Source: Nemertoderma westbladi (Eukaryota; Animalia; Xenacoelomorpha). From it: a stretch of 57,550 bases of DNA. Position 1 is the first letter of the stretch; each line of letters begins with the position of its first letter. The DNA is taken from positions 1 through 57,550 of the forward strand of contig JAUCBJ010001862.1 of assembly GCA_032718475.1 (NCBI GenBank), in the 5' to 3' direction. The notes below the pieces were generated by a model. The model saw only the letters and a program-made list of their open reading frames with translations, was not told the DNA's origin and did not search any database. The position numbers and the translations under genes were made by a program. Positions 5,705 to 55,760 of this stretch are shown here, one piece after another.

Positions 5705-6372
5705 GATCCATCCAGTCTAATACAGTATGGCTAGTCTAACCCTCGCATACCAGCACCAATTATTGGAAGATCCATCCAAACTAGGCCTAATACACTAATA
5801 CAGTATGGCTAGTCTAACCCTCGCATACCAGCACCAATTATTGGAAGATCCATCCAAACTAGGCCTAATACACTAATACATTATGGCTAGTCTAACCCTC
5901 GCATACCAGCACCAATTATTGAAAGATCCATCCAAACTAGGCCTAATACACTAATACATTATGGCTAGTCTAACCCTCGCATACCAGCACCAATTATTGG
6001 AAGATCCATCCAAACTAGGCCTAATACACTAATACAGTATGGCTAGTCTAACCCTCGCATACCAGCACCAATTATTGGAAGATCCATCCAAACTAGGCCT
6101 AATACACTAATACAGTATGGCTAGTCTAACCCTCGCATACCAGCACCAATTATTGAAAGATCCATCCAAACTAGGCCTAATACACTAATACAGTATGGCT
6201 AGTCTAACCCTCGCATACCAGCACCAATTATTGGAAGATCCATCCAAACTAGGCCTAATACACTAATACAGTATGGCTAGTCTAACCCTCGCATACCAGC
6301 ACCAATTATTGAAAGATCCATCCAAACTAGGCCTAATACACTAATACAGTATGGCTAGTCTAACCCTCGCAT
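5705..6372. repeat. 78-bp intronic minisatellite, ~8.5 near-identical copies
   Basis: GATCCATCC recurs at 5769, 5847, 5925, 6003, 6081, 6159, 6237, 6315. Confidence 0.95.
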
Positions 6373-11100: not shown

Positions 11101-11905
11101 ATGGAAACTTGACAACCATTGATAATAATCAACTAAGGAAGGTCGATGACTTCCAGTACCTTGGATCATGGATAGAGAGTAGCAAAAAGGACATAGAAGT
11201 TAGGAAAGCAAAGGCTTGGGTAGCTCTATCAAAAATGGATACCTTCTGGAAATCAGATCTCTCCAGGCACCTGAAGACTAAGTTATTTCGAGCCACAGTG
11301 GAAAGTGCATTTTTATACGGGGGTGAGACCTGGACACTGACTAAATCACTTGAACAACAAATTGATGGTTGCTACACAAGACTACTAAGGGCAGCCCTAA
11401 ACATCAGCTGGAGACAACACATGACAAACGCCGAACTTTATGGTACAATACCACCTGTATCAACCACCCTCCGTGAACGCAGATTAAGATTCAGTGGGCA
11501 CTGCTGGCGAAGTAAAGACGAGGTCATAACAGATCTACTTCTCTGGCAACCAACTCATGGAAAGCGTAGTCGTGGACGACCGGCCATAACATATATAGAT
11601 CAACTTGAAAGGGATACTGAACTTGGGAGAAACGAAATTGCGACAACTATGGAGAATCGGGAAGCCTGGAAGGATCTCATTTCCACTGTCCGAGTTCGCT
11701 CGACCTAGTAGTAGTAGTAATTTTATGGAAACATTTTTTAAACTCGATTACATCTGATCTTATCATCATACAGTACCTAATTGACTTAATCTGTATTAAT
11801 TTATAGCAACACATTCGTATTTTATATGTATATAAGAATTACTTAATTTTATGGAAACATTTTTTAAACTCGTTTACATTTGTTTTTTTACTTTATTGCC
11901 TTAAT
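8165..11905. repeat. ~120-bp AT-rich tandem repeat interrupted by the RTE insertion (8165-8366 and 11719-11905)
   Basis: ACATTCGTATTTT...ACTTAATTTTATGGAAACATTTTTTAAACTCG units on both sides of the RTE. Confidence 0.8.
8367..11718 (+). mobile_element. full-length RTE-clade LINE (APE + RT), disrupted by a stop and frameshift near 10262-10320
   Basis: APE motifs AGDLNA, LDYII, SDH; RT motifs GVLQGD, DFADD; (TAG)n tail; ~22-bp TSD AATTTTATGGAAACATTTTTTA at 8345-8366 and 11719-11740. Confidence 0.95.
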
Positions 11906-15748: not shown

Positions 15749-16595
15749 GGCCCATGTGAAGAATACCAGACTTTTTGCCGTTATATTTCACTTTGCAGTT
15801 ACCACCATGTGAAGAATACCAGGTTTTAACCAAACACAACCGAAGGGCTTAATCTAACCAAAACAATAAATGAATTAGTATATGTACAGGTCATAAGACA
15901 GAAATAAGCACTATAAAACAAATAAAGATAAACTTAATAAAGATAAATTAAAAAAAATAAAAATTCCATATAAAATTCCAATAAAAAGTCGACCGAAAAG
16001 TGAAATCCTGGTATTCTTCACATGGGCGGTATAATTCTACTAATTTTCATTTTTTCGCTACATGATTTACTACTGTAATAAATAGAGACGATTCTGGCAA
16101 TGGCTTAGTTTGCTGGTGTACTATGATTATTCTCAAAAAAAACAAAACTGTAGTGTGGATTACAAACATATTATCCTTATTATAAGCAGATAGACTTGGT
16201 AAAGGGAAACAAATTAAAATGGTAACCACAATCATAAAATCTTGTTAACTACAGTACAGTAGATACAATTTCACATTATTTAACAAAAATATAAATTTTG
16301 GCGCCCATGTGAAGAATACCAGGATTTCACTTTTCGGTCGACTTTTTATTGGAATTTTATATATGAAGATTTTTCATTTTTTTTTAATTTATCTTTATTA
16401 AGTGTTTTATAGCGCTTATTTCGGTCGTATAACCTGTACATCTACTAATTCGTTTATTGTTTTGGTTAGATTCAGCCCTTCTGTAACCTGTGTTTTTGGT
16501 GAAAACCTGGTATTCTTCACATTATATTCTTCACGTTATATTTCACTGCGAAGTGAAATATAACGGCAGAAAGTCTGGTATTCTTCACATGGGCC
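15749..16595. mobile_element. foldback MITE with ~280-bp inverted arms
   Basis: GGCCCATGTGAAGAATACCAG at 15749 and its reverse complement ending at 16595; inner arm ends near 16028 and 16302. Confidence 0.85.
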
Positions 16596-23585: not shown

Positions 23586-23649
23586 TATATACAGTACTGT
23601 ATATAGATATAGGTATATGTATTACTTAGATTTAATTACTTAGATTTAA

Positions 23650-24597
23650 CTATATTTTTTGATGACAATGGAATACTTCAAACAAAAATATACCACAAAC
23701 CAACAGACGTCCATCAATATATCAATCAATATATATGTCCGCACTCAGCCCATCCGCACAGTCAACTTAAACACGTTCCATATGGGGTTGCCCTACGATT
23801 GAGGCGTAACAATTCACGAATGGAGGATTTAATGCAAGCACTTTATGAATATGGAGCAGCATTCATTGCTAGGGGTTGGAGAATGGCCGATGTTACTACA
23901 CAATTTGCAGCGGCAGCTATTCAGACACAGTTAGAATCTCTACAAAATGATAAAAAACGAAATAAAAGTAAATATACCATATTTTATGTTAGTAACACTG
24001 AACCTATATTAGGATCAATACAAAAGATAGTAGACAAACATACACCTATTCTAAGAACAGACATCAGGACCAAGCAACTCATTGACTCTTATAAAATAGT
24101 AAATATTAACCGTAGGGCCCCTACGCTAAAGGGAATTTTAGTTCCATCCAGTTTAACATCAAAGCAGAAGAACCAGGCAAATACAACACATGCTGGATCT
24201 AAAAAATGTACAAGACAGAAATGTATACCATGTGAAGCGATAAAACCAACAAAACAATTCGGATTAACCTCGACCCGTTTGAAAACTAAATATGAAATTA
24301 AACAGCGCCTTACCTGTGATGACAAAGATATAATATATTTAGCAAAATGTAAAATATGTAACTTACAAGGAATCGGATCAACAGAAACATTTAAACCAAG
24401 GCTATCACAATATAAGTGTAATATAAAGAATCATAAGCCACAAACGACTATAGAGAAACATTTTTGTAAAAATGAAAACCATGATATTTCGCATTTCGAA
24501 ATAACACCCATTGAAAAGGTTCATTACAAAGGCAGGGGAAAGAAAGATCAGCGACGGGAGATCCGTACAAGGGAAGGATACTGGCAGTGCACCTTAA
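23650..24597 (+). mobile_element. Penelope-like element (RT thumb + GIY-YIG endonuclease), 5' part; continues at 42202
   Basis: KPTDVHQY, SAHP, IIYLAKCKIC..QGIGST, HF...H, REGYWQCTL; resumes as LRTIKPFGLN after the piggyBac. Confidence 0.9.
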
Positions 24598-24902
24598 AAC
24601 CTTCTAAGGACCAGACCCATTTCACATTAATATATCACAATTCCTTTCATAGGGCAGGCTCATATAGTCAAAATTAAGAAAAATTGTGAATTTCATGAAA
24701 ATCCATTCAGCCATTGGCCTATAAAGGGCATGTTCCCATTTGGGAACAGTGGGCGCTAAAGCACTAAGAATTTACAAAATTTCCATATTATTGAATACTC
24801 AAATTATTTCATCTATATTGAACCAATTACTGCTTAGTAGTATATACTAATGCATTATAAAACTTCCAATAACATAAATAGCGCCCTTACAACAATATTT
24901 AT

Positions 24903-26514
24903 TGTTCGCGGTATTTCAACTTTCCATAACGCGAGTTGAATATTTTTGTATTTATTTAAAATTGATTATTCCGATATTACTACTGGGTGCGGGACCATGG
25001 GTTTTGGGCACATTCAAGAAACTGGGGGCGATTTATGGGCGAACTTTGGGGCAACTTACAGGGTACGGGAATAATTTCATAGTTATAAGGGCCAGGGGGG
25101 GATGGAAAATGCAAGCAGTATTCAGGTTAGCCTGAGTACTATTAGGCCCTGGCCAACTTCCTGCTGCCTGTAGGGGTGGATTTGGTAATGCGCCAGGCCT
25201 AAAGGACAAGGACTGCCCTTAGCGGTCCCTGGCCAACAGCAGCCATTACGAGACTGAAAAGAACTCGGACCGCTGACTGCTTGTGTCAGGGATTTGCGAC
25301 GGGCACCGACGGCCCCTTAGTAGCCAAGCCGTTCTGGTTCTCGATGATCGTTCCCTTCGGGGTTCGTGAGGGGTGGAGCGGACACGCGAACGGGTGGCCA
25401 ACTAACGACTGCCCCCTGACCTAAGCCGTACTGGTTCTCGATGACCGATCCCTTCGGGGTTCGTGAGGGGTGGGACGGACATGCGAAAGGGCTGGCCACA
25501 GGACGGGTTTGACGAGAACTGCCCTTAGCGGTCTCTGGTCAACGGCAGCTACTACGAGACTGAAAAGAACTCGGAACGCTGACTGCTTGTACTGGGATTT
25601 GCGACGGGAACCGACGACAGACCCCTTAGCCAAGCCGTACTGGTTCTCGATGATCGTTCCCTTCGGGGTTCGTGAGGGGTGGAACGGACACGCGATGGGG
25701 TCGAAAGACAAAGGACTAGACTCGACTAGACTCTACTGGCCTACCGACTGTTCGGAGCAGTTTCTCGGCTGCCGAAGCGACTACGAGCCTGAAACGGACT
25801 CGGAAAGCCTAGGTGGTTGGGTTTCTGTGATGAACTGACGGACCCCTAGCCAAGCCGTTCTGGTTCTCGATGATCGAACCCTTCGGGGTTCGTGAGGGGT
25901 GGAACGGACACGCGAACGGGTCCACCGACACGACAGACTCCTAGCCAAGCCGTACTGGTTCTCGATGACCGAACCCTTCGGGGTTCGAGAGGGGTGGTAC
26001 GGATACGCGACAGAGTCTACCGACTGGACCGACCCTTAGCCAAGCCGTGCTGGTTCTCGATGATCGTTCCCTTCGGGGTTCGTGAGGGGTGGAACGGACA
26101 CGCGACAGGGTCGACCGACACCGACACTACGGCACTAAGACTGGGACCGAGGGAAAATCTGGGGAACATTAGGTAGGCTAAAATTCTGAGCAAACAGTGG
26201 GTTATTAAATAATATACTGTAGGGATTTATATTATCGTGTATAATTATTGTGAATATTTGGTGTATATTGATTTGGGGAAGCCCAAAATTATTCTTAATC
26301 AAGTTTCAATGATGTTGAACGGGTTTCAACTATAGGAAGTTACATTAAAGAGTATATCCAACTAATGCAGCTTTTTATCAACCGCAAACTTGCATCTCAG
26401 AAAATATTCCCTCCCCACAATCAATATCCGGTGACTGGCCGGGGCTCGGTGGTCTGTTAAGTCACGTCTCCAGCATCGGCGTTTTTCCCCCCTGGTGTAG
26501 GGATAACGGCAACA
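24903..26514 (+). repeat. 5' LTR (1612 bp)
   Basis: TGTTCGCGG...GGCAACA; matches 37586-39197 at offset 12683; one difference seen (25018 G vs 37701 T). Confidence 0.97.
25210..26115 (+). ncRNA. LTR array of structured RNA modules (6 K-turn/UUCG hairpins, 3 GAAA hairpins); repeated at 37893-38798
   Basis: repeated CCGTNCTGGTTCTCGATGAYCG..CCCTTCGGGGTTCGWGAGGGGTGG..CGG with compensatory closing stems (GACCC/GGGTC, GACTC/GAGTC). Confidence 0.65.
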
Positions 26515-26765
26515 AAATTAAGAATAATTCACGTGGTTAATTTTGACAGGGTGTCAAAATTAAGAATAATTACGGTCAACTTCAACTGGTGGAAGTTGAG
26601 AATCCTTCAATACTCTTCAAAAACTCTCTACGTGCTTGCCAGCACCCACTACGAGGAAACTCTGGTATTTGAGTTGAGACAAAGTCGTGGTTTAATTAAT
26701 CAGCAAACTCGATCTAACCAACTCGTAGTCGGCAGATCACATATTTGGAGAGTTGTTAACAGGGA

Positions 26766-26957
26766 ATGGAAGTATCGATCACACCCATTGATATAATTCA
26801 AGTTGAGCCAGGAATCTGGCACGTCGAAGTTGAGGTACAAGGAACGAACGTTGGACGATTCAGGATTACTGTTCGGGTGGTCCAAGCTGAGTACAATACC
26901 TACGAGGAACTGTTTTACGACATCGCGTATCTAGCCATCGACGAGGCGTTACAATGA
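26766..26957 (+). CDS. 63-aa upstream ORF overlapping the gag start (ATGA)
   Basis: ATG-initiated, amphipathic beta/alpha pattern, TGA stop overlaps the gag ATG at 26954. Confidence 0.5.
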   Translation: MEVSITPIDIIQVEPGIWHVEVEVQGTNVGRFRITVRVVQAEYNTYEELFYDIAYLAIDEALQ

Positions 26958-29900
26958 CAACAAATAACGTATCCGATACCGACGAGATGGATCACCACAC
27001 AGACTCGGAAGCCGACGAGGTACCAAACGTCAAGAACATGACCCGTCGGTTAGGGGCTCTTAAAGGCGGAGTAACCCGAGCGTATCAACGGATGGAGAAA
27101 CAACTCAAAGGAGTCAAAACCCCCCTCAATGAGGTACAAACTCAGCTTCAAAGTATCCGAAATATCCTACAGCGGTACGAAAGAATGATACAGGTGTACC
27201 AAGAGCTCGTTCCCCCCACCGATCAGGAAAACTACCCCAAGTTGGAAGAACACGTTGTACATCTAGATGGGTTCCGCAAACAACACCGGAGGACCCTCAG
27301 CCTTGTGAGAGGCTATGAGGAACAGTATTACAAGAGGGCTGACGCGGAATCAGTACGATCCTCCAGCATCAGGACAGCAGTACATCGTAAGAGAACGGGG
27401 TCCGCTAGAAATCAGCACTCCAGCGCTAGGAGCGAGATATCCGGCTCGGCGCGCAGTTCTCAAGGGGCGCCGCCACTCCGAGACCAACTGCGAGAACGGA
27501 AGGCATTAGCCCTCAAAGCTCGGATGGAAGATGAGTATATTCAACTGCAAGCCGAGCAAGATGTATTAGCCACCGAAACACAAAAGCGAGAGGCCGAACA
27601 AGCGGCCGAACGGCAGGCCGAACAACGCGAACAGGAGGCCGAACAACATAGACGAGAAGCCGAACGGCAGGCCGAACAACGTGAACAGGAGGCCGAACAA
27701 CATAGACGAGAGGCCGAACGAGAGATCGAACAACGTAAATGGGAAGCGGAAATGCGTAAACAACACGCCGAGGCCCAAGCAATTCTTATCCACAAAAAGA
27801 ATGCGGATATTGCAAAACTCGCAGAATACGAAGCCGCACTTATAGAACGAGATATTCATCTCTACGAGGACTGGGAAAGGGATATAGATCAGGAATATGA
27901 ACCAATTCCGGTACCGGAGTCATTTACACCAACAGCGGCGAAACCTCCGAAACCCGAGATCCCGCCTACCAAACAGTCTACGCTATCGGCACAAGCCCCG
28001 GTGTTCCATCCCCCACCAGCTACGCTAAAGAATGAGGAACCTTATTTCCCATCCAACACCACGACAGCGAGTGTACCCAAGTACGAGCCTGAAAGGGACT
28101 CGGAACGGGACGCCACTCCCCGATCTAACAACCCATTTACATCCACACCACAAACTCGTAGCCGCGTCATTATTAAAACTCCACCTATTATTGATCCATC
28201 AAGTATGGGAGTGAGTGCCAATAACTATAACCCTCCGAGTCACTCTAGTTCAGACGACGTCAGCATCATCCGGGCGTTGGAGAACCGCCTTGCCATGCCT
28301 AAGATGGAGATTCGCACCTTCGAAGGAGATCCCGTCGATTACCTCAGATTCAAGAAACGGTTCTTTGCACAAATCGGATCAACGGACATAGCCGACGCAC
28401 AGAAATTGGTATATTTATCGCAATACCTGGGTGACAAACCACGCAGTATTGTTGCATGTTTTGAAGGAGGTTCTCATGAGGCATACTATGACGCATGGAA
28501 AACTCTAGATAAAAGATACGGAAATACCGGAACTATAATTAATAAAACTCTAGAGAGACTGATACAGGACGCGGGATCACTAGGGGACCCACAGAACATA
28601 CAGGAATTCTCCGACTCTATGAAGGATGCCTACTATACTCTGAAACCCTTAAATAAAGAGGACCAGGTGAACAACATTCTAAACCTCCGACAGATCGCCA
28701 AGAAGTTCCCCGGATGGCTACAAAGTAAGTGGGCTTATAAATGTGTAGATCTCCGGCGCAGACATCCAGATCGAGATCCTAGCTTCCTTGAAATGTCGGC
28801 ATTCCTGGACGATATCTCCGAAGCCATGAATGACTCGATGTTTTCAAAACAAAGTCTCGCAAAGTTGGACGGAATAGAGAGCAACTCCAGGAGTAAGATA
28901 ACCCCTCCGAAACCGAGATTCCGCCCCCCACCGGTAAGTACGATGGCCATTACCATGGCCGAGGATTCCGACGACGAAGACTACGAGGAACCGACATCCG
29001 CCGAGGAATGGGCATGTTATCTCGCGAGTTGGGCACCCGAAAGGGAAGGCATCACAAATTCCCTGCTCTGTCTCTTCTGTGGGGAGAAACACAAAGTGGA
29101 ATTCTGCAGAAAGTTTCAGTTCGCCGAACTCGTCCCACGCTTCGAGGCGATAATGAAACACCGAGGATGCTTCCGGTGTCTTGGAACAGGTCACTATGTT
29201 CGGGAGTGCGACCAAAGATCATGCTGTACTGTCTGTAACGACCAACGCCATCACACGCTCCTCCACATCCCCGCGAACTTCGATTTTACTACCCTCCCCT
29301 TTCGGATCGAAGCCAGGCGAAGAGGAGAAACAAACCACATCTTTAAAGGAACCCGGACAACCCAACGGAGAGAAACCAACCCGTTTAAAATCTCCACCGA
29401 TACACCACAAGTAACCAATATTTCGGCCACGATTAATCTTATAAATCGCCGCTACATGGTTTTCGCAAAGGTAATCCCAGTAAGGATCCAAGGAGTCGGC
29501 AAATCTTTGACGACACTCGCGTTCCTCGATAACGGGTCTGACGGAACCATCATCGACCGGGATTTCCTCGAGCAACTCGGCCTAGAATATGAACCTTGTA
29601 AACGGCCCATACAAACCATCACCGATAACAGAGAGGTAGAGTCCGGGGAGGTACAACTCCAGATGGAAGGAGTGATGAAGGGCTACGAAACGGCTAAGTT
29701 AACCATCAAGAACGCCTTGGTACACACAGACCTCCGGGTGCGGTTCCGACAATCAGCCGAGTACGCCCCCCTCATACAATTAGACCGAGACGATGTAGAC
29801 CTGAGGTGTCCGCAGTTGGACGTGAACCGTATCACCCTACTGATTGGACTTGATACACCGGAACTACACATCCCCACCGGAGATATCGCTCGATCTATAA

Positions 29901-32900
29901 ACCAGGATGATGGATTCTATGCTGAACGAACAATAATGGGATGGACACTCTGCGGCATTAAGGAGGAAACTACGGACACCTATACCTACCTTCCTAAATG
30001 TCAGATTAAAGAGAATGTAACCTCTGTGGGTTATTGCTCAGCTTCAGATCTTGACGAGGATTTGTTTCTGGAAACCGAGAAAACCCAACGAGAGATGACG
30101 AAATATTTTAATTTGGAGACCCAGGAGTTCGCGGAAAAGGACGAAAACCCATCCGAAGAGGACCAATATTGTATGGACGTTCTCGACCAGGCCACGTTTA
30201 AAGACGGACATTGGTGTTCACCTATGTTATGGAAGGATCCAAACAAACCAATGGCAAACAACGCCAGCATGGCACTTAGGCGACTTAAAGGGATTCTACG
30301 CCGGCTGAATGACCAACCCGAGATAAAGGAGAAATATAATACCGTAATCCAAGGATATCTCGATGATGGATTAGCAGAAATGGTACCACGGAATGAACTG
30401 CAAGGTGGTGAAAGAACATATTATCTCCCAACCCACTATGTAGTAGAAGCCCGCAAAGGTGGGAAAATCCGAGTGGTAAATGATGCTGCCGCTATGTACC
30501 AGGGCGAATCCCTAAACAGTCAACTTTACACGGGGCCCAACATATATAGCACACTCATTGGCGTATTGATCAGGTTCAGGGAAAACCGGGTAGCATTCAC
30601 CTGTGACATCAAGGCCATGTTTCATCAAGTTCGTACGTTACCAAGAGACTCGGACTGTCTACGTATCCTATGGACGGATAAAACGCTTACTCAACAGGAG
30701 ATTAGCCAACTCACGATAAAGGACGTAGACGTAATGCGTATGGTCGTCAGGATCTTCGGCGCTAAGGACTCGCCGGTAGCATGCAGTGACATGCTAAAGA
30801 GGACGGCAACTATGTGCGAAAACGAGTTCCCTCCAACTGTCATAGAAACAATTCGACGATGCTTCTACGTGGACGACGGATGCGCCGGCGCGGATAATGT
30901 GGATGAGGCATATCGGCTAGCAATGGGGATGGTAGAATGTCTAAAGAAAGGAGGGTTTCCGCTCGTGAAGTTCAGATCCCACGACAAAACACTTATGGAA
31001 AAGTTTCCGGAGGACATCCGGCTGGAAAATAACAAAATGTATTCGGAGGATGTGGAACATCGTGTACTTGGGATTGAATGGGACATAGAATCAGACGAAT
31101 TCATCTTCAAGTATAAACCCCTACCCAAGCCTATGACAAAAAGGGGATGTTTGTCGATAAAAAGCGCCATCTTCGACCCACTAAATTTCATATCTCCAGT
31201 AACCTTGGCCGGAATGAACCTGATTAAGGAAATGTGGATAGAAGGACTGGGATGGGACGAAGAGCTCCCCCCATACCTCAGCGTCAAATGGAGAAAATGG
31301 ACGGAGCAGCTCGAACACCTACATCTTATGCGGATACCTAGACCGTTCTTCCTCGATAAGTTGCCCACCGATATCTTCCAGCTCCACACCTTTTCGGATG
31401 CTTCGAATACCGGAATCGGCGTAGTCACCTTCCTACGGAGACTAAGTAACGATGGAAACGGCGATACAAGCTTCTTATTCTCCAAAGCAAAGACAGTATC
31501 CGGGGAATTCGTAGCAACGATCCCGAGACTCGAGCTACAAGCTGCAGTTTGGGCAGTAAGACAGAATCGCATGGTCATGCGGAACCTACGGATCCCCATA
31601 GAATCTCAACACTTCTGGGTAGATTCGAGTATAGTTCTCTATTATCTCCACTCTCCATCACGGCGTCACACCACGTTTGTTGCAAACCGAGCCACGGAGA
31701 TTAAACAGTGTACCGGCCGAGAACAGTGGCATCACGTGAACGGGAAGGAAAACCCAGCGGACTTATCAAGCCGAGGCGCCACCCCAAAACAACTCGGTAA
31801 AAGTAAACTCTGGCTTACAGGCCCGGAATTCCTACGGCAGCCACAATTAACATGGAGTACCCGATTCGACCCCGAGCTCGATAGCGGAAAATACTCCGAG
31901 GACGATAAAGAGATCCGTAAAATCCATCGAAGCAACGCGGTGGAAATTTATAGTTGTCTGACTGAGCCTGCAAAGGACTCGGGCAGGCACTATAACGTCG
32001 CGATGATCACCCAACTAGCGGCGTCTTTACATCGGTTGATCGAGCGAACTTCATCCATGAGACGGCTCGTCCACCACGTTATAACCCTTCGCAACTTCCT
32101 ACGGTGGAAAAACAACAAACCGATAGTTCAACGGAATATACAAGAACTCATTATCGCGGAGAAGTGTATTGTTAGATATGTCCAGAAAGAAAGTTTCCCC
32201 GATGAATGGGAACAACTTAGTGCGGGCAAAACGTTGAAACCGGACAGCCCAGTCTACCAACTGAGACCAATGATGGGAGAGGACGGACTGATCCGACTGA
32301 ATACCCGGATGGCAAACGCCCCGGTCGAATATGAGGTTAAATACCCGGCGCTTCTGCCCGGAACGTCGACACTAGCTAAGCTATTAATTCTACAATGTCA
32401 CGAGGACAACCACCACGCAGGACAGAATTGGATTATAGCTAATATAAGACAAAGATATTGGATCACCCACATCCAGCCACTGATCCGGAAAGTGTTGAAA
32501 CGTTGCTTCACCTGCAGACGTTACCTAGCGCCACCAATCACCCAAAAGATGGCCGACTTACCAGCCACCCGTCTACAAGCGGATTCCCCACCATTCTACG
32601 TCACCGGAGTGGACTGTTTCGGACCGTTCACGGTTATTGAACGACGATCCAACATCAAATGCTGGGGAGCCATCTTCACCTGCCTAAGGTCTAGGGCAAT
32701 TTACCTAGATATCGTGGTAAATCTGACACAACACGCATTCATCAACGCTCTGCGTCGGTTCGTGGCGAACAACGGGACATGCCGCCACATGTATTCCGAT
32801 AATGGTACAAACTTTGTGGGAGGAGAAAGAGAACTTAGAGAGGCGATCGAGGGATGGTTTACCGATAACACCGCATCCCAAGTCTGGAAGGAACACCAGA

Positions 32901-33571
32901 TACAGTGGCACTTCCAGACCCCCTTAGCACCCCATACGAGCGGGGTATGGGAGAAACTGATCGACCTAGTGAAACGATCCATGCGCGTCGCTCTAGGCGA
33001 CACCCGGGTAACCCATGACACCCTCCGCACAACATTCTGCGAGATCACGGCTACCCTGAACAACCGACCCATTGTCCCTATCCGCGACGACCCCACAGAC
33101 CTGGAGCCCCTCACTCCTAACCACTTACTGGGGAGACCCAAAACCCACGTTCTCCCGGAAACCATGTTCCCGGATCCCAACGAGATCGCGAAACATACAA
33201 ACTGGAAAAAGGCCCAAGCGTTGGCAGCGCATTGGTGGAGAATTTGGGCCCAGGAGTACCTCATAACCCTCCGGACCAGGAGGAAATGGAACAACACCTA
33301 CCGGAACGTCGCAGTTGGCGACATGGTACTAGTTAAAGAAGATCTCAAAGACCGCGTTCACTGGCCTGTGGCGCGGGTCGTGACCATACACCCAAGCAAA
33401 GACGGACTTGCGAGGACTGTGACGATACGAACGAAATCGGGCCACTACCAACGCCCCATCCAGAAGCTGTGCCTTCTTGAAGGCAATGACAGTGGTGATT
33501 CTACAAGAGGTGATAAGTTCCCTACTACGGATCCTACTGTGGACATTGGTGACAATTATAAATGCGTTTAA
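26954..33571 (+). CDS. BEL/Pao Gag-Pol polyprotein (2205 aa)
   Basis: Gag FEGDP region, three BEL-type Cys/His knuckles, protease FLDNGS, RT YVDD, RNase H FSDAS/IPRLEL/NPAD, integrase HHCC and VDCFGP/SDNGTNF/WE, C-terminal WPVARV. Confidence 0.97.
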   Translation: MTTNNVSDTDEMDHHTDSEADEVPNVKNMTRRLGALKGGVTRAYQRMEKQLKGVKTPLNEVQTQLQSIRNILQRYERMIQVYQELVPPTDQENYPKLEEHVVHLDGFRKQHRRTLSLVRGYEEQYYKRADAESVRSSSIRTAVHRKRTGSARNQHSSARSEISGSARSSQGAPPLRDQLRERKALALKARMEDEYIQLQAEQDVLATETQKREAEQAAERQAEQREQEAEQHRREAERQAEQREQEAEQHRREAEREIEQRKWEAEMRKQHAEAQAILIHKKNADIAKLAEYEAALIERDIHLYEDWERDIDQEYEPIPVPESFTPTAAKPPKPEIPPTKQSTLSAQAPVFHPPPATLKNEEPYFPSNTTTASVPKYEPERDSERDATPRSNNPFTSTPQTRSRVIIKTPPIIDPSSMGVSANNYNPPSHSSSDDVSIIRALENRLAMPKMEIRTFEGDPVDYLRFKKRFFAQIGSTDIADAQKLVYLSQYLGDKPRSIVACFEGGSHEAYYDAWKTLDKRYGNTGTIINKTLERLIQDAGSLGDPQNIQEFSDSMKDAYYTLKPLNKEDQVNNILNLRQIAKKFPGWLQSKWAYKCVDLRRRHPDRDPSFLEMSAFLDDISEAMNDSMFSKQSLAKLDGIESNSRSKITPPKPRFRPPPVSTMAITMAEDSDDEDYEEPTSAEEWACYLASWAPEREGITNSLLCLFCGEKHKVEFCRKFQFAELVPRFEAIMKHRGCFRCLGTGHYVRECDQRSCCTVCNDQRHHTLLHIPANFDFTTLPFRIEARRRGETNHIFKGTRTTQRRETNPFKISTDTPQVTNISATINLINRRYMVFAKVIPVRIQGVGKSLTTLAFLDNGSDGTIIDRDFLEQLGLEYEPCKRPIQTITDNREVESGEVQLQMEGVMKGYETAKLTIKNALVHTDLRVRFRQSAEYAPLIQLDRDDVDLRCPQLDVNRITLLIGLDTPELHIPTGDIARSINQDDGFYAERTIMGWTLCGIKEETTDTYTYLPKCQIKENVTSVGYCSASDLDEDLFLETEKTQREMTKYFNLETQEFAEKDENPSEEDQYCMDVLDQATFKDGHWCSPMLWKDPNKPMANNASMALRRLKGILRRLNDQPEIKEKYNTVIQGYLDDGLAEMVPRNELQGGERTYYLPTHYVVEARKGGKIRVVNDAAAMYQGESLNSQLYTGPNIYSTLIGVLIRFRENRVAFTCDIKAMFHQVRTLPRDSDCLRILWTDKTLTQQEISQLTIKDVDVMRMVVRIFGAKDSPVACSDMLKRTATMCENEFPPTVIETIRRCFYVDDGCAGADNVDEAYRLAMGMVECLKKGGFPLVKFRSHDKTLMEKFPEDIRLENNKMYSEDVEHRVLGIEWDIESDEFIFKYKPLPKPMTKRGCLSIKSAIFDPLNFISPVTLAGMNLIKEMWIEGLGWDEELPPYLSVKWRKWTEQLEHLHLMRIPRPFFLDKLPTDIFQLHTFSDASNTGIGVVTFLRRLSNDGNGDTSFLFSKAKTVSGEFVATIPRLELQAAVWAVRQNRMVMRNLRIPIESQHFWVDSSIVLYYLHSPSRRHTTFVANRATEIKQCTGREQWHHVNGKENPADLSSRGATPKQLGKSKLWLTGPEFLRQPQLTWSTRFDPELDSGKYSEDDKEIRKIHRSNAVEIYSCLTEPAKDSGRHYNVAMITQLAASLHRLIERTSSMRRLVHHVITLRNFLRWKNNKPIVQRNIQELIIAEKCIVRYVQKESFPDEWEQLSAGKTLKPDSPVYQLRPMMGEDGLIRLNTRMANAPVEYEVKYPALLPGTSTLAKLLILQCHEDNHHAGQNWIIANIRQRYWITHIQPLIRKVLKRCFTCRRYLAPPITQKMADLPATRLQADSPPFYVTGVDCFGPFTVIERRSNIKCWGAIFTCLRSRAIYLDIVVNLTQHAFINALRRFVANNGTCRHMYSDNGTNFVGGERELREAIEGWFTDNTASQVWKEHQIQWHFQTPLAPHTSGVWEKLIDLVKRSMRVALGDTRVTHDTLRTTFCEITATLNNRPIVPIRDDPTDLEPLTPNHLLGRPKTHVLPETMFPDPNEIAKHTNWKKAQALAAHWWRIWAQEYLITLRTRRKWNNTYRNVAVGDMVLVKEDLKDRVHWPVARVVTIHPSKDGLARTVTIRTKSGHYQRPIQKLCLLEGNDSGDSTRGDKFPTTDPTVDIGDNYKCV

Positions 33572-33847
33572 ACCCTTCTCATCATGTTGACAAACTCTTT
33601 TTAACTGTGATTTATCGACAATGAGTTATGGACCCCCTTTAAACCAACTGTAACCACGCATGGTATTTGTGTTTCCTCGTGTGTTATGTGGAGTCCAGCG
33701 TCACCCTGCAGATGTTTCGGCTGACGCAGGGTCGTTTATGTATTGTTTACCCTGATTTTGGTCATCGGGACCAACGATATTGGATTATTGGAAATGGAAA
33801 AGATTTGAAGTGGAATTCATTGTATTCATTGCAGTATGTTATGTTGT

Positions 33848-34268: not shown

Positions 34269-34819
34269 CCACGACAAAGATTAACCAAAGAAAATGATTG
34301 AATATAGTTGGAAACGATGAAAAGGATCAGACAACTCTACTATAAACCTGAATGATGACGCGTATACTGATGAAAATGTAATGATGCGCACCCTGGTGCT
34401 GCGCTTATAACAATGATGATAGCCGGGGGGCTATAAACCCAAATGATGATGTGGAAATAAATAAATGTGAAATAAATGGTGGAACTAAATGTTGAAATAT
34501 ACGTGGAAATAAATGAAATAAGATGAAATAATAATGAAATGAAAAAAGACAAAAAAAAGGTATAAAAAAGGTCAAAGAAAAGAATTAGAAAAAAGAAAAG
34601 GACAAAAAAGTCATAAAAAACTGGTTGGATATTATGTATAGCTATAGTAACTGTAAATGCTGAATGTATTAGCAATAAGATGATAGATGCCTATATAGCA
34701 ATGTTATTAATAAACTGAATTAAATAAAAAAAAACTGAATTATTCTGCTATCGCTATAGTTTCAGACTTTCTGGACTTATAATTAACTGATCTAATTTGT
34801 AACGGATATAATCGTAAAT

Positions 34820-37420
34820 ATGGACCCAAATCGCCAAATTATCGGCGAATTACGTAACACGATAGATCTACTGGAATATTCGCAACCCGGATCCCCTGAC
34901 TTTGATACAAATGGGAGCACCCTGCTAAATGAGAACGTGCGAGTCATTAAATTCACCGGGCGAGAGGGACCGGATTCTAAGAATCTACGAGCCCTCCGGT
35001 TAGCTGATGCTAGTACGAGACTGAAAAGAACTCGGAACGCAAAGGCAACCGGAGGGGACGATTCGTCGTTTTGGGAAACGTTCCGGCAGAGCGTCTACAG
35101 ATCCCGATGTTTGATCTACGACAACGAGGGAAACGCGACGCCCACCTCGAAAGCGATTACGTTGGCGAGATGTCAAAGTTTCGTCGACGACAAGAGTACG
35201 TACCTCGCCCACTGGGGAAACCTGTCGGAGTGTACGGCGACGCTTCGAGAGGAACGCGTATCGATTATCCAAAACCGAGACGACTACCAAGAAAAGTACG
35301 GGGCGAAAGAATACGGTCGATCCTTAGTCGTCGTCCTCGGAACCCTGGACGGTTTGGTACTGGTGTGCCGAATATTCCCGACACCCAGACAGGAAGTGCA
35401 GGCAGCCGGAGCGATCTGGTTGCTGCCTCCGGAAATCCAAAAGATCCTCTTCGACTTCGACGTCATTAAAATCGGGTCGGATATCAAGGCGGACGTCCGG
35501 AACGACTACGCGAACGCCCCTGCAGGAAGAAACCGACGAGACGACCTCAACGCCCTTAGCCATTGCATCGACACTCAAACGCTACTAGCCTGGTTACGAT
35601 TCGCCGAGTTCATGCGAGGATTCCAAGAGGTGAGACCGACGAAATCCGGGATCGGCTACCTCGCTGTGCTCAACGGCGGTATCGACTTCAAACCCCAGAA
35701 ATTCCGGGACTATAATAAAATATACGGTGGATACCCGGGATTGGAAATAAAGAGCGAGCGAGAGGGTCGATGGAAGGACGTTGATCGGAAGTGGACGATA
35801 CACCAAAGGTGGGAGAATCCTGATCGACGGAACTACGTTTACGTCGTTATGGAGTGCTACACCGTCGCTAAGTTTATCTGTAAAACTCTCGATAACCTTA
35901 TTACGGCGGTCCCCCTTTCCTTCGTCGACTACGACTGGAACGAGGTTATAAACCACGCGTTTAAAGCGGTCGAGAACATTACACCGGGAGAATCGAAAAC
36001 ACCCGCCGTTATCGATTCCTGGGACGAGAGCGGACCTTACGACATCCCTACGATTACCGAACTTCTCGGTGCGGAGGAGCCTCTGATCTCCTCGGAAGGG
36101 GAAGAGATATGGCTAAACGAGGGTGTTCTACTCTCCACCCCGAAGCGACAACTCGAGCCGGAGGCCGCGTATGGACCGGCCGCCAAACGGGTTGCCTCGG
36201 CCGAACCGATGAAGAGAGCAGGCGTTTACACCCCACGCGGCTCCGGTAGCCCCGCGAGGGAGGTAGCCACTACAGCTGCATTGAGCGACTTCGGCGACAT
36301 ATGCCAACGGTTATCCCCGTATCCTTTCCCGGGTGGCGAAGATTGGTCGTCGGAGATTCCGAGTACCAGCCACCAATGGACCCGCTCAGCGATACTGGTC
36401 GAGGAGGGCCCCAGCGATGCGCCGACACCCGACGATCTCCTCGGTATCCCTCCGTCTAAAACCCCGGCACCCCTTCGCCGACCAGCGGTGGCTACTACAC
36501 CCGCCGTTCCTCAGGACCCTATGCGACTAACCCGTTGGTACGCCGAGCAAACTGAATGGATCCACCGCCAGAAACGGTCATCCGAGTTGAGACCAGCGGG
36601 ACACAAAGAAGGTTATCGGAGCGAGAACCTATTACGCAAAAGCCTAGCATTCCGCGGGCTACCGACCACCGAGAATATTCCGAAGAGCGACCGACGACTC
36701 GAATACTACGTCGGCGTCCCGATTCCGATATTTCCTGGTCGAGAGATACAGTTGGAGGTATGCGGCGACTGCGGTTCGGAGCAGTGCCCACGCAGCAGAA
36801 GGAATCGGGTTACCGATTCTTGCCTCCAGCTCCTCGGGATACTCTATTGCCCATACTGCGCGACATCGGGCCACGACGTTTCCGTCTGCCCGATCCTTTA
36901 TAACCTCTGCACCACGTGCGGTTTCCGTGGACATTCCTCTAGCCCCCGCTGCTATATCAAATGTCCAACCAAAGACGTTACCGCTATGGGCAATATGGTC
37001 ATGTTTGAGACATACGCAAACAGCCACTTAAAGACCAAGGTTCGGAGAAACGCTCGGAATATCGCGCAGGAGATGGCGTGCGGATATTTCTCCTTCCCGG
37101 AACGCCTCCACACGTCGGCCACGCTACCTTTCCATTACGTGGATCTGCTACTGAGCGCCGGATTATTCGGTCCATTTGAAGTCATTAGACGATTATACTC
37201 GTATAAAGAGGAGTTCGGTGACGGAGAATGGTTCCTAGAGGCACGCAAATCTGAGTTGGAGAGACGAACCGACATGATCCCGATGCCTTCGAAAGGAAGA
37301 GCCGCCAGGAGACAAGCCGAAGCGTTACTCACGATGGATGTTGACGCTCCTCTACCAGCCATAGCGATCGATGAGAGTCGACGGGCGAAGAGACGAAAGG
37401 CGTATCAGAGAAAGAAATAG
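34820..37420 (+). CDS. BEL accessory ORF2 (866 aa): DEDDy/WRN-like 3'-5' exonuclease-fold domain + Pro-rich linker + Cys/His zinc knuckles
   Basis: LPPEIQKILFDFDVIKIGSDIKAD, CIDTQ, GIGYLA, RWENP, YVVME; CPYCATSGHDVSVC, CTTCGFRGHSSSPRC; basic C-terminus; no signal peptide or TM segment seen. Confidence 0.75.
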   Translation: MDPNRQIIGELRNTIDLLEYSQPGSPDFDTNGSTLLNENVRVIKFTGREGPDSKNLRALRLADASTRLKRTRNAKATGGDDSSFWETFRQSVYRSRCLIYDNEGNATPTSKAITLARCQSFVDDKSTYLAHWGNLSECTATLREERVSIIQNRDDYQEKYGAKEYGRSLVVVLGTLDGLVLVCRIFPTPRQEVQAAGAIWLLPPEIQKILFDFDVIKIGSDIKADVRNDYANAPAGRNRRDDLNALSHCIDTQTLLAWLRFAEFMRGFQEVRPTKSGIGYLAVLNGGIDFKPQKFRDYNKIYGGYPGLEIKSEREGRWKDVDRKWTIHQRWENPDRRNYVYVVMECYTVAKFICKTLDNLITAVPLSFVDYDWNEVINHAFKAVENITPGESKTPAVIDSWDESGPYDIPTITELLGAEEPLISSEGEEIWLNEGVLLSTPKRQLEPEAAYGPAAKRVASAEPMKRAGVYTPRGSGSPAREVATTAALSDFGDICQRLSPYPFPGGEDWSSEIPSTSHQWTRSAILVEEGPSDAPTPDDLLGIPPSKTPAPLRRPAVATTPAVPQDPMRLTRWYAEQTEWIHRQKRSSELRPAGHKEGYRSENLLRKSLAFRGLPTTENIPKSDRRLEYYVGVPIPIFPGREIQLEVCGDCGSEQCPRSRRNRVTDSCLQLLGILYCPYCATSGHDVSVCPILYNLCTTCGFRGHSSSPRCYIKCPTKDVTAMGNMVMFETYANSHLKTKVRRNARNIAQEMACGYFSFPERLHTSATLPFHYVDLLLSAGLFGPFEVIRRLYSYKEEFGDGEWFLEARKSELERRTDMIPMPSKGRAARRQAEALLTMDVDAPLPAIAIDESRRAKRRKAYQRKK

Positions 37421-37576
37421 TGGATCGGGATATTCCAGGAACATTTATCGAACATTTATTTTTATACAAACTCTAGGCCAAATTAATTAAAAACTATGCA
37501 ATATTAAATTTGGGTTTTTTATATTGGGAATGACCTACGCAAACTCAATCGACCGACAGACTTCACGAAGGTCATT

Positions 37577-37585
37577 GGGGGGGAC
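37577..37585 (+). other. polypurine tract
   Basis: GGGGGGGA immediately before the 3' LTR. Confidence 0.8.
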
Positions 37586-39197
37586 TGTTCGCGGTATTTC
37601 AACTTTCCATAACGCGAGTTGAATATTTTTGTATTTATTTAAAATTGATTATTCCGATATTACTACTGGGTGCGGGACCATGGGTTTTGGGCACATTCAA
37701 TAAACTGGGGGCGATTTATGGGCGAACTTTGGGGCAACTTACAGGGTACGGGAATAATTTCATAGTTATAAGGGCCAGGGGGGGATGGAAAATGCAAGCA
37801 GTATTCAGGTTAGCCTGAGTACTATTAGGCCCTGGCCAACTTCCTGCTGCCTGTAGGGGTGGATTTGGTAATGCGCCAGGCCTAAAGGACAAGGACTGCC
37901 CTTAGCGGTCCCTGGCCAACAGCAGCCATTACGAGACTGAAAAGAACTCGGACCGCTGACTGCTTGTGTCAGGGATTTGCGACGGGCACCGACGGCCCCT
38001 TAGTAGCCAAGCCGTTCTGGTTCTCGATGATCGTTCCCTTCGGGGTTCGTGAGGGGTGGAGCGGACACGCGAACGGGTGGCCAACTAACGACTGCCCCCT
38101 GACCTAAGCCGTACTGGTTCTCGATGACCGATCCCTTCGGGGTTCGTGAGGGGTGGGACGGACATGCGAAAGGGCTGGCCACAGGACGGGTTTGACGAGA
38201 ACTGCCCTTAGCGGTCTCTGGTCAACGGCAGCTACTACGAGACTGAAAAGAACTCGGAACGCTGACTGCTTGTACTGGGATTTGCGACGGGAACCGACGA
38301 CAGACCCCTTAGCCAAGCCGTACTGGTTCTCGATGATCGTTCCCTTCGGGGTTCGTGAGGGGTGGAACGGACACGCGATGGGGTCGAAAGACAAAGGACT
38401 AGACTCGACTAGACTCTACTGGCCTACCGACTGTTCGGAGCAGTTTCTCGGCTGCCGAAGCGACTACGAGCCTGAAACGGACTCGGAAAGCCTAGGTGGT
38501 TGGGTTTCTGTGATGAACTGACGGACCCCTAGCCAAGCCGTTCTGGTTCTCGATGATCGAACCCTTCGGGGTTCGTGAGGGGTGGAACGGACACGCGAAC
38601 GGGTCCACCGACACGACAGACTCCTAGCCAAGCCGTACTGGTTCTCGATGACCGAACCCTTCGGGGTTCGAGAGGGGTGGTACGGATACGCGACAGAGTC
38701 TACCGACTGGACCGACCCTTAGCCAAGCCGTGCTGGTTCTCGATGATCGTTCCCTTCGGGGTTCGTGAGGGGTGGAACGGACACGCGACAGGGTCGACCG
38801 ACACCGACACTACGGCACTAAGACTGGGACCGAGGGAAAATCTGGGGAACATTAGGTAGGCTAAAATTCTGAGCAAACAGTGGGTTATTAAATAATATAC
38901 TGTAGGGATTTATATTATCGTGTATAATTATTGTGAATATTTGGTGTATATTGATTTGGGGAAGCCCAAAATTATTCTTAATCAAGTTTCAATGATGTTG
39001 AACGGGTTTCAACTATAGGAAGTTACATTAAAGAGTATATCCAACTAATGCAGCTTTTTATCAACCGCAAACTTGCATCTCAGAAAATATTCCCTCCCCA
39101 CAATCAATATCCGGTGACTGGCCGGGGCTCGGTGGTCTGTTAAGTCACGTCTCCAGCATCGGCGTTTTTCCCCCCTGGTGTAGGGATAACGGCAACA
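37586..39197 (+). repeat. 3' LTR (1612 bp)
   Basis: near-identical to the 5' LTR, followed by TSD TTTAT. Confidence 0.97.
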
Positions 39198-39465
39198 TTT
39201 ATTATATTTATTAGTAATATTATTATTAATTAACAAATATTATATTACAACTAAGAAGACAAGTAGTAATGTAAATTATTAATTAATAAATTTAAATAAA
39301 ACAAAAGAAAAAACTTTTCCATACAATTCCATCTATATATTTCAGTATTATATAGAGACATATTTATTAATTAATATTACTACTAATTAATTAATAGAAA
39401 ATAATTAGAAATTTACTCTCTGAGTTTACCATGAGCTGAAAAACGATTTAGCTTTCATATAGAGT

Positions 39466-41355
39466 TCAGTGTGTGTTCTTTGAATGGTAAATTATCCAAC
39501 AAACTTTTCCGTGATCACTGTGCAGTCTCTTCTTACATTTTCTACATTGAATTCGCGTATTTTTTTGACATACAGCACATCTTCCTTGTGTAACTTCTTC
39601 CCTAAAGTGCTCCATTTCGTCACATCGGATATCATCAGGTACATGACGCGGTTTACCACTCATACGCCTTGGTTCCCTTATTTGAGCAGTGGCTCCAACA
39701 GTGCCAGATACAATAAGATGTGTAAGATGTGTGATAGCTGCTCTCCTTTCGGAAATATGCGACAATGAACTCTCCAAGCAGCAGTCATGCAAACCCCTAG
39801 AGATTCAATGAAAAGTGGAAACCACCACTTCTTGGCTTTTATTCGGGGACGATATGAAGAAACTAACCTATCTAACAAATCTACACCACCCATACCCTGG
39901 TTATACTTCACAACATCTCCAGGAACCTTCACTTGAACACTACCACCTTTGACTCTCCTCTTTACATTTCCAACTGGTTCATGTCCAATAGCATTGCTTG
40001 CCATGTGAACGATGTTATTGTCATGCCACTTTGTGATATGAACAATGCCATCACATATATAGTCAAATGTTCCTCGAGGCGATTTTTTCATATCCTTCGT
40101 GCTCATCAGGCTGATATTTGCACCACCTGTTCTGTCTTGTCGTATTGTACCAGTTGTTGCTGCACCTCGTTCCTTCATCACTCGTAGCAAAGCATAACTA
40201 GTAAAGAAATTGTCAATGTAAAAATGGTGTTTAGACAATAATGACACACTTTCAATAACATCAGCCATGTGGAGAACGACCTTCCCACCAAGGGTAGTTT
40301 TTGGAACTTTCTCTCGTGCTCGTTCATAGCGATCCACTTTTGCCTGCTTTGCTGGTGGTGCCTTCTCTTTATTGGTAGATTGGGTATCAGCACCATCTTT
40401 CTCCTTTCCAGTGTAAATCTTTAGTTGATACGGATATCCATTACTGCCTGCAACGCACCACCCCTTGTACCCAAAACGAACGGGTTTATTAGCCATAAAC
40501 TGCCTAGCTGAATGAAGGCCATAGTAAGGTATCATGGCTTCATCTATTGATAGTTCACTATCAAATATCCCAAACTGAAGAAGTCAAGCATTCATCATAT
40601 CGTATAAGGGCTGAACCTTCGCAATTTTGTTGCCTTGTTCTAAGTTAAGATTGTCAGCCAGGTGAAAGTATCGCTTGATTAATTCAAATCGATTTCGCGG
40701 CATCGTTTCTTTTACAATTGGAATACCAAGATCATTGTCATCTGACCACATATCACGCTGAGATGGTACTTGGTGATAGCCAGACAATAAAATAATCCCA
40801 AGAAACTTACGAATTTCAATGTCGTTAGTCTTGAATGGAGGGCAGTTTTTATCTCTATTCGCATATAAATCAGTCTGAGTCACAAAAATATCAATCATTT
40901 CGTTGTCCATGTATTTGGAGAATAGTTTGAACGGAGAAGCTCCTGCTATTGATGGATCAACACAGTCCGGTTTTTCTAAACTTTGAAGTTCTGGTTGTGG
41001 AGGGTGCGCTATATTTAAGTTTTTCCGCCATTTATGCTTTTCATGCACAGATTCTTCAACCTCATCAGCATCATTGGATGTCTCGTCATAGTTGTAATCA
41101 TTCTCATATTCCTCTTCCACTTCTATTTCACCAGCAGGCTCAGGTAGGAATGTTGGGTCTATGTCGTCATCCTGCTCCTCATCACTGTCAGCATTGCGGT
41201 CGTCACCTGTATCAGGAGGCAGTATGGTCACAGTTGTAGACAAAGTCCCATGGTGTGATGCTATTGAATCAGCAGCATCTCCTGAGAGTTTTAAATCGTG
41301 CAGTTCTTGTTATTCCACGTTTTCCATAGAATGATACTGGGTCTGCCACTGCCAT
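39466..41355 (-). pseudogene. piggyBac (PGBD2/3-like) transposase with in-frame stop and frameshifts
   Basis: SIDEAMIPY, NKPVRFGYK, YIDNFFTS, YNQGMGGVDLLD, C-terminal Cys-rich domain; TGA at 40584-40586 in frame; frameshifts near 41280 and 39720. Confidence 0.92.
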
Positions 41356-44379: not shown

Positions 44380-44786
44380 GTCAGATTTCAATTCCTGCGA
44401 AATTTCAAAGCGAGCATGTTGGACCAAGTGGTCCAGACAGTTGGTGCACACATAACGTAGATGTAGATTATACGCCGCTGAGTGATGCAGAAATATTTGA
44501 TAAGATAGATACAGCCATAGGCTGCTACCAAACCATTACCATGTCATCCATAGAGGTATGTAGCTGTGCCCTCTGTTTTGTCGATGGTGTTAACACCCCT
44601 CATAAATTCAGTGATTTCACCACTACAAAGTGCTCTCAGTCTAAAACCAAGTGTCTTGAGACCATTATAGTTCACGACAAGAAGTTATTGCCCATCAAGA
44701 AATTGCAGCTTGGCGATACCGGTAGTTCCGACGAGGAGATATACAGCGAAGGTGTCAGTGATTTAATCTGCAACGTACTATCATAA
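44380..44786 (+). CDS. terminal exon of gene B: fibrinogen-related domain, copy 4
   Basis: cctatag| phase-1 acceptor in frame with the FN2 exon; GCYQTIT, CFVDG, DKKLLPIKKLQLGDTG; TAA at 44784. Confidence 0.8.
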
Positions 44787-45520
44787 AATGTATCGAACTG
44801 TGTTGGTGGAAATGCTTCCTTTAAATGTAGCGAACTTTGTTGGTGGAAATGCTTCCTTAAATGTATCGAACTTTGTTGGTGGAAATACTTCCTTAAATGT
44901 ATCGAACTTGGTTGGTGGAAATACTTCCTTAAATGTATCGCACTTTGTTGGTTGGAATTCTTCCTTAAATGTATCGAACTTTGTTGGTGGAAATGCTTCC
45001 TTAAATGTATCGAACTTTGTTGGTGGAAATGCTTCCTTAAATGTATCGAACTTTGTTGGTGGAAATACTTCCTTAAATGTATCGAACTTTGTTGGTGGAA
45101 ATGCTTCCTTAAATGTATCGAACTTTGTTGGTGGAAATGCTTCCTTAAATGTATCGAACTTTGTTGGTGGAAATACTTCCTTAAATATATCGAACTTTGT
45201 TGCTGGAAATGCTTCCTTAAATGTATCGAACTTTGTTGGTGGAAATTCTTCCTTAAATGTATCGAACTTTGTTGGTGGAAATACTTCCTTAAATATATCG
45301 AACTTTGTTGCTGGAAATGCTTCCTTAAATGTATCGAACTTTGTTGGTGGAAATGCTTCCTTAAATGTATCGAACTTGGTTGGTGGAAATACTTCCTTAA
45401 ATGTATCGAACTTTGTTGGTGGAAATACTTCCTTAAATATATCGAACTTTGTTGCTGGAAATGCTTCCTTAAATGTATCGAACTTTGTTGGTGGAAATGC
45501 TTCCTTAAATGTATCGAACC
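44787..45520. repeat. 36-bp minisatellite, ~20 copies, directly after the stop codon
   Basis: AATGTATCGAACTTTGTTGGTGGAAATGCTTCCTTA repeated. Confidence 0.95.
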
Positions 45521-55455: not shown

Positions 55456-55760
55456 TGCCTCACTGAGGCAATGAGGCATAGACTATGGCTCACTGAGGCA
55501 GAAACTATGCCTCACTGAGGCACTGAGGCACTGATGCATAGACTATGACTCACTGAGGCATAGACTATGCCTCACTGAGGCATAGACTATGCCTTACTGA
55601 GGCACTGAGGCATAGACTATGACTCACTGAGGCATAGACTATGCCTCACTGAGGCACTGAGGCATAGACTATGCCTCACTGAGGCACTGAGGCGTAGACT
55701 ATGACTCACTGAGGCATAGACTATGCCTCACTGAGGCACTGAGGCATAGACTATGCCTCA
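55456..55760. repeat. 22/30-bp minisatellite built of palindromic sub-units
   Basis: TGCCTCACTGAGGCA and ATAGACTAT units. Confidence 0.9.

Follow-up and report, generated by a model that had tools for sequence, protein, structure and literature searches.

Six predicted K-turn modules in each long terminal repeat of a BEL/Pao retrotransposon from Nemertoderma westbladi form a candidate Snu13-binding array

Why should a retrotransposon carry, in each of its long terminal repeats (LTRs), six copies of a structured module with the layout of a kink-turn (K-turn), which protein would such modules bind, and in which part of the element RNA would they lie? The question is raised by contig JAUCBJ010001862.1 of Nemertoderma westbladi, analysed here over a stretch of 57,550 nt (the window), where the array is found within an intact BEL/Pao LTR retrotransposon with both LTRs and open ORFs present. 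The parts of the element are the following.

24898-24902 and 39198-39202, target duplication TTTAT of 5 bp, flanking the BEL/Pao element
24903-26514, + strand, 5' LTR of 1,612 bp, TGTT...AACA
26891-33571, + strand, gag-pol ORF, uninterrupted, 2,226 aa from stop to stop, ending in TAA
33844-34266, + strand, motif C in three copies and a fourth motif in two to three copies, between pol and ORF2
34796-37420, + strand, ORF2, 874 aa from stop to stop, ending in TAG, with an N-terminal 3'-5' exonuclease-like region (a lead only) and Cys/His knuckles
37577-37584, + strand, polypurine tract
37586-39197, + strand, 3' LTR, with one mismatch to the 5' LTR (at 25018)

The assignment to BEL/Pao, a group restricted to animals according to PMC3601003, follows from the domain set of gag-pol (DUF1759, aspartyl protease, Peptidase_A17, integrase zinc finger and DUF5641), together with the TG...CA LTRs, the target duplication and the polypurine tract. 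The best homologs of gag-pol show ~40% identity and contain the same domains, and a search of viral contigs with pol as query gave three candidates, none of which was confirmed. Because the LTRs are nearly identical and the ORFs are open, the element has probably moved recently, and its + strand would then have been transcribed recently as well. Every LTR base enters the RNA of such an element at least once, and since the strand on which the modules are read is also the coding strand, each base of the array is expected one or more times in the element RNA.

The array consists of six modules of ~90 nt at 25311-26113 in the 5' LTR, all of which are repeated in the 3' LTR.

25311-25399, + strand, predicted K-turn module 1, bulge G at 25343, K-turn and cap at 25340-25373
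25411-25496, + strand, predicted K-turn module 2, bulge G at 25440, C.U above the G.A tandem
25620-25702, + strand, predicted K-turn module 3, bulge G at 25649
25840-25923, + strand, predicted K-turn module 4, bulge G at 25869, upper stem fully paired
25935-26018, + strand, predicted K-turn module 5, bulge G at 25964, C.A above the G.A tandem, outer stem compensatory
26030-26113, + strand, predicted K-turn module 6, bulge G at 26059
37994-38796, + strand, second, identical copy of the array with all six modules, in the 3' LTR and located in the 3' untranslated end of the element RNA

A sequence-only reading had proposed six K-turn hairpin cores in each LTR, conserved between variable spacers, and this description was borne out: CCG starts at 25329, 25426, 25635, 25855, 25950 and 26045, in each case 14 nt before the bulge G, all six modules recur 12,683 nt downstream, and the cores are 88-98% alike, compared with 13-87% for the 15-nt flanks. 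Two of its structural details apply to part of the array. The outer stem given as GACCC/GGGTC is exact in copies 3, 4 and 6, and the compensatory GACTC/GAGTC is present in copy 5, whereas in copies 1 and 2 this stem is interrupted and different. Similarly, the U.U pair described on top of the G.A tandem was seen in four copies, but copy 2 has C.U and copy 5 has C.A in its place. The competing slipped register, motif B and the primer site of the self-priming type, all treated below, do not figure in that reading. The GAU bulge and both G.A pairs are the same in 6/6 copies, as are the C-G and G-C pairs that follow above, the C stem of 4 pairs and the cUUCGg cap. Only 7 of the 53 core columns vary, and six of these seven fall among the 10 non-canonical columns (P 6e-5, for classes that were defined post hoc and copies that are related, not independent). 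In the outer stems of copies 3-6, pairing is kept with different letters, namely G-C, A-U and C-G at one position and C-G to U-A at another. The + strand model contains 26 G.U and no A.C among its 120 cells, and the two minus-strand folds that were tested were weaker by 11-14 kcal/mol.

A generic scan for Snu13-type K-turns over both strands of the 57,550 nt, with rules that were written with the modules in view, recovered 12/12 modules and only three other places, and of 2000 dinucleotide shuffles made from a single module, 0-10 contained a K-turn of this type. Fold z-scores were strong only in copies 4 and 5 (-3.8 and -3.6), the other four lying between -1.4 and +0.9. A covariance model built from the six modules gave good scores only for the 12 LTR copies, followed by 11 further matches at E 0.66-5. 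The module pattern was also matched in one viral and 19 metagenome contigs, which were dismissed as chance, as 20/20 were single, without the module flanks and without a blastn match to the element. A lone K-turn-like sequence at 33603-33627 (match at 33609), shortly after the pol stop, is probably due to chance too, and a difference in the public run X1 breaks one of its pairs.

X1, the one public run listed for the element, contained two contigs with module sequence. It is of uncertain kind and not recorded as RNA, which is uninformative as to expression, and the parts of the element that it leaves uncovered are likewise uninformative. In the first (depth 5.7; window positions 37563-39184), module 1 runs directly into module 6 across 44 letters common to both, 716 nt are absent, and the contig represents either an LTR with one module or an assembly shortcut. 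It retains motif B and the 13-nt stretch, both of which are treated below, and lacks 19 nt immediately behind the primer-like stretch. Given such a single-module LTR, six copies may be dispensable. The second contig (depth 2.2) agrees with a module core in 40 of 42 letters, the places of the two differences not being displayed, and its flanks have diverged.

These observations bear on the view that a neutral or DNA-level tandem expansion in U3, comparable to enhancer repeats, produced the array and that its RNA fold is incidental. Such an origin agrees with the description of U3 as the most variable LTR region in PMC3601003, with a copy number that varies between individuals or copies, as in X1, and with a core covariation among the copies that is not significant (339/500 shuffles reached as high a value). 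It does not account for variation that avoids canonical pairs, for outer stems that compensate, or for G.U pairs and a cUUCGg cap that favour + strand RNA, and we regard it as quite improbable.

In 6/6 copies the modules have the layout of a standard K-turn, with a C helix, a 3-nt GAU bulge, tandem G.A/A.G pairs and an NC helix closed by the cUUCGg cap, matching the definition in PMC5499572 and PMC4316175. The K-turn reading with a ligand of the L7Ae family (Snu13), as originally proposed, is consistent with the rules printed in those two papers and in PMC1874613, and the modules are predicted to fold as kinked K-turns. ViennaRNA, the model of which has no K-turn term, favours a slipped register with a 5-nt bulge and no G.A tandem by 4.0-6.0 kcal/mol in all six copies. 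In this register the modules would be plain bulged hairpins bound by some other protein. The slipped fold has the lowest energy throughout, but it is intact in five of the six copies, being damaged in copy 5 and also in the diverged X1 contig, and it turns the full K-turn signature and the identity to U3 described below into chance events, at a frequency of such K-turns in shuffles as low as that given above; it is rather improbable in our estimate. In the diverged X1 contig, a CCT before the bulge pairs in the K-turn register and leaves a C.A mismatch in the slipped one, if the two differences lie elsewhere, which weakly but independently favours the K-turn register. Past each kink the arm is a 7-pair stem with a UUCG cap and no docking partner. 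With such a dead-end hairpin as its arm, the kink most likely serves as a protein-binding site rather than as a hinge.

Sites for Snu13 are characterized by a purine at bulge position 2, followed by U at position 3, together with U.U and a closing base pair, as stated in PMC5499572 and PMC1874613. The purine, the U and the closing pair are present in 6/6 modules, and the U.U pair in the 4/6 already named, with C.U and C.A in the remaining two. The fourth pair of the modules is C-G, contrary to the preference of SBP2 for Pu-Py at this place (PMC1874613). The closest known K-turn appears to be the B/C motif of U3 snoRNA: 25343-25353 (11 nt; copies 1, 3 and 6) and 25365-25369 (5 nt; 5/6 copies) are letter-identical to stretches of human U3, the 11-nt motif being located in the U3 sequences displayed in PMC11101645, PMC3941584 and 10.1101/2021.08.01.454689, and the 5-nt 3' strand of the core also in the two of these prints that extend far enough. 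Compared by eye, identity to the human U3 B/C K-turn core is 13/13 in copies 1, 3, 4 and 6, 12 in copy 2 and 11 in copy 5; the comparison is with human, not host, U3, any strong Snu13 site would be expected to share about 8 of the 13 positions, and the identity carries no statistic. The register and the box labels in this comparison are our own assignments.

U3 B/C is described as forming a K-turn (PMC2784804) to which Snu13 binds more tightly than to C'/D, and Rrp9 is loaded on B/C via Snu13, with helices 2-4 of U3 required for loading in vitro (PMC5499572). The modules share the core sequence of this motif, but their order is permuted (C then B, joined by the UUCG hairpin, instead of B then C), they occur as six copies inside a retrotransposon RNA, and they have neither the C'/D motif nor the 5' pre-rRNA-pairing domain nor the flanking helices 2-4 of U3 snoRNA. 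The permuted order makes direct capture of one piece of U3 unlikely, and the U3 likeness could plausibly have arisen by convergence. The label "box C/D-type", which the sequence-only reading had given to the K-turn, is not borne out, as the boxes of the modules are AUGAUCG and GUGA, compared with the consensus RUGAUGA and CUGA in PMC5499572, and U3 B/C is closer. The K-turn of box C/D snoRNAs shares the 3-nt bulge, the tandem G.A, the U.U and the C stem with the modules, but the fourth pair of the modules is C-G where box C/D has G-C, and they contain no guide sequence, the boxes being separated only by a 7-pair hairpin that leaves no guide space. When the LTR, the entire element and modules 4-6 were compared with Rfam, all matches were weak and fell well short of the gathering scores, and no snoRNA, U3, SECIS or ribozyme model was matched above noise.

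It is highly improbable, close to negligible, that the modules function as SECIS elements or as self-cleaving ribozymes. A ribozyme would not be out of place, as ribozymes are common in retroelements, but cleavage in U3 would sever the genome upstream of R. SECIS elements, the sites of SBP2, share with the modules the G.A tandem for a protein of the L7Ae family and a location in the 3' untranslated region (PMC1874613). The modules differ from them by a closed 3-nt bulge in place of an open internal loop, a Py-Pu rather than a Pu-Py fourth pair and a short upper stem, and the element has no in-frame UGA upstream of them. According to the rules in PMC1874613, the fourth pair and the closed bulge disfavour SBP2. 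In addition, the two ORFs are open, with TAA and TAG as their stops, and a SECIS or ribozyme match was lacking in the Rfam scans.

The place of the array in the element RNA was deduced from the following signals around the end of the 5' LTR.

26264, + strand, TATATT, candidate TATA-like box, 23 nt upstream of the putative transcript start
26287-26299, + strand, 13-nt complement of the primer-site position, putative self-primer and putative marker of the transcript start
26344-26349, + strand, ATTAAA, candidate poly(A) signal, 57 nt downstream of the putative start
26517-26529, + strand, primer-site position, 2 nt after the LTR, with a second copy in the leader at 26559-26571

The 5' LTR is not followed by the TGG of a tRNA-type primer site. 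The primer-site position at 26517-26529 is the exact complement of 26287-26299, and such a 13-mer was obtained in 0 of 2000 block shuffles. In the self-priming LTR retrotransposons Tf1 and Tj1, the primer site is likewise the complement of part of their own LTR (PMC4600332); these belong to Ty3/gypsy, whereas the present element is a BEL/Pao member. The complementarity suggests that this BEL/Pao element self-primes. A primer built by splicing was rejected, as the best junction match among 3,150 GT-AG pairs is 10 nt, shorter than the contiguous 13. Taken together, the 13-nt complement, TATATT and ATTAAA point to a start near 26287, which makes it more likely that the array belongs to U3 than to R. 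A TATAA at 25084, upstream, and a further ATTAAA at 26204, downstream, bracket the array and are compatible with a location in R or with a separate transcript. With either placement, the array of the 3' LTR would form part of the RNA's 3' untranslated end.

The bracketing signals also enter into the proposal that the array serves as a sponge or gives rise to small Snu13-protected RNAs, perhaps from an upstream promoter inside the LTR, and competes with U3/U4 for Snu13 or Rrp9. Apart from TATAA and ATTAAA on the two sides of the array, this proposal draws on the arrangement of the modules, in which box C is 5' of a GA-bearing 3' box and the C stem is directed outward, like the ends of snoRNAs. 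As the modules offer no guide space, no box C/D consensus and no Rfam match, and the benefit to the element is not evident, we consider the proposal very improbable.

Besides the K-turn modules, the LTRs contain a second repeated motif, designated motif B, a short hairpin with a bulged A, a GAAA-containing loop and a conserved internal loop below. Its cores in the 5' LTR and in the coding sequences are as follows.

25247-25269, + strand, copy 1 of the motif B core, 96 nt upstream of module 1
25553-25575, + strand, copy 2 of the motif B core, 96 nt upstream of module 3
25782-25804, + strand, copy 3 of the motif B core, 87 nt upstream of module 4
28082-28104, + strand, motif B core in the gag coding sequence, frame offset 0
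35014-35036, + strand, motif B core in the ORF2 coding sequence, frame offset 2, hairpin z -5.6

With a search pattern derived from the motif B copies themselves, the 23-nt core, which is located in long hairpins, gave eight exact matches in the window including the 3' LTR, none in 100 shuffles and none in viral contigs. Because it is present in the LTR and in both ORFs in different frames, motif B is kept as nucleic acid and not as protein. Its internal loop resembles the loop-E/bulged-G motif, and the foot of the modules may resemble the U4 5' stem-loop, a likeness not used as evidence here. The lower loop of the modules is GCCAAG/CACGC, with both changes together in copy 2 (CCTAAG/CATGC), and resembles the 11-nt GAAA receptor with one extra A (10.1101/2024.03.11.584472). 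This pair of elements raises the possibility that the modules are parts of an RNA scaffold that helps to compact, dimerise or package the genome, in which the GAAA loop of motif B docks the lower loop of the module and Gag or ORF2, not Snu13, are the main ligands. The spacing of motif B at 96, 96 and 87 nt before module blocks, its presence in gag and ORF2 and the number of five motifs B for six modules per RNA would fit such docking, as would the receptor likeness itself, but the latter departs at several positions in addition to the extra A, only some copies of motif B have a clean tetraloop, and a U3-like K-turn with a dead-end hairpin cap is left unexplained. We consider a scaffold possible, although unlikely.

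The explanation that we favour, with moderate confidence, is that the array acts as a multivalent landing pad for Snu13 (15.5K) which protects or routes the intronless RNA of the element. Six U3 B/C-like K-turns per LTR would place host Snu13 at six sites along the RNA's 3' untranslated end. With a start near 26287 the array would be part of U3 and be read only from the 3' LTR, ~250-1050 nt before the putative poly(A) site, which is predicted near 26365 of the 5' LTR numbering. Protein binding would select the K-turn over the slipped fold, the ligand would be Snu13 rather than SBP2 or a ribosomal relative of L7Ae, and the benefit would be one of RNA stability or trafficking, through a shield from nuclear decay or snoRNP-like routing. 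Binding of 15.5K is reported to stabilise snoRNAs in PMC5579392. Besides the energies that favour the slipped register, a core covariation at shuffle level and the single-module contig of X1, the loss of U.U in copies 2 and 5 and modules without the U3 helices 2-4 speak against a Snu13 platform. A doubtful further reading is that the array mimics the U3 snoRNP, the permuted B/C motifs recruiting Snu13 and then Rrp9/U3-55K, so that a false snoRNP evades nuclear surveillance, while the five GAAA-loop motifs dock receptors in the module feet and convert the 12-kb RNA into a defined particle; the U3 B/C likeness would in that case point to Rrp9 as a specific second partner.

Among the matches listed in a search of mostly open-access full texts, there was no report of a K-turn array or a U3 mimic in an LTR. 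Nuclear quality-control survival and cytoplasmic arrival of long intronless retrotransposon RNAs are poorly known beyond a few models. Cis-acting stability or export elements are found in intronless retroelement RNAs, including ENE triple helices and CTE, RTE and MTE. These resemble the array in being structured, sometimes repeated and near the 3' end of the RNA of LTR elements, but their folds and ligands differ, and none of them is known to be a K-turn array. If the Snu13 landing pad is real, a mobile element would have borrowed the snoRNP pathway, and a natural six-fold array of Snu13-type K-turns would resemble the engineered L7Ae arrays of synthetic biology. The same element combines a primer site of the self-priming type with an additional, exonuclease-like ORF and two or more further repeated RNA motifs.

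The extra ORF, ORF2, resembles a 3'-5' exonuclease with zinc knuckles, a lead only that comes from the ESM Atlas, where DNA_pol_A_exo1 was indicated at 0.92, the family being present in 50% of that cluster. Three distant relatives were identified, one of which has both the N-terminal region and the Cys/His knuckles in common with ORF2. The first acidic motif looks degenerate in ORF2, and the three relatives retain an acidic motif. ORF2 matched no Pfam family, a word search yielded no homolog and no solved relative was found, and a search with its entry (P0123) matched only itself; a single-sequence fold with a pLDDT of 31 was set aside. A TTTCAG at about 34760 may be a splice acceptor for ORF2. 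The bdelloid LTR retrotransposons Juno and Vesta, with a DEDDy ORF3, are like this element in having an extra exonuclease-like ORF after pol, but they belong to another superfamily, ORF2 is only a weak match, and a K-turn array does not appear in the available part of their description (PMC5408684). In the region just 3' of the pol stop, motif C has a loop of ~25 nt that is nearly invariant and contains the palindrome CAGCTG, and a second repeat is interleaved with it; this region is a possible stability, dimerisation or translation element.

Several other repeats and mobile elements were observed in the window. Just upstream of the element, at 23613-24677, an ORF with a weak GIY-YIG match is perhaps a Penelope-like remnant, and downstream, at 39678-41309 on the minus strand, a DDE_Tnp_1_7 transposase extends across two adjacent ORFs. 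A LINE-like endonuclease and reverse transcriptase occupy two ORFs at 8636-11708, and nested inverted repeats at 15749-16595 are MITE- or foldback-like. Long GC-rich ORFs of 21-nt repeats, with no clear family, are located at 50212-54945 on the minus strand, and tandem arrays were found at 5717-6372 (78 nt), 44786-45519 (36 nt) and 55455-55760 (22/30 nt).
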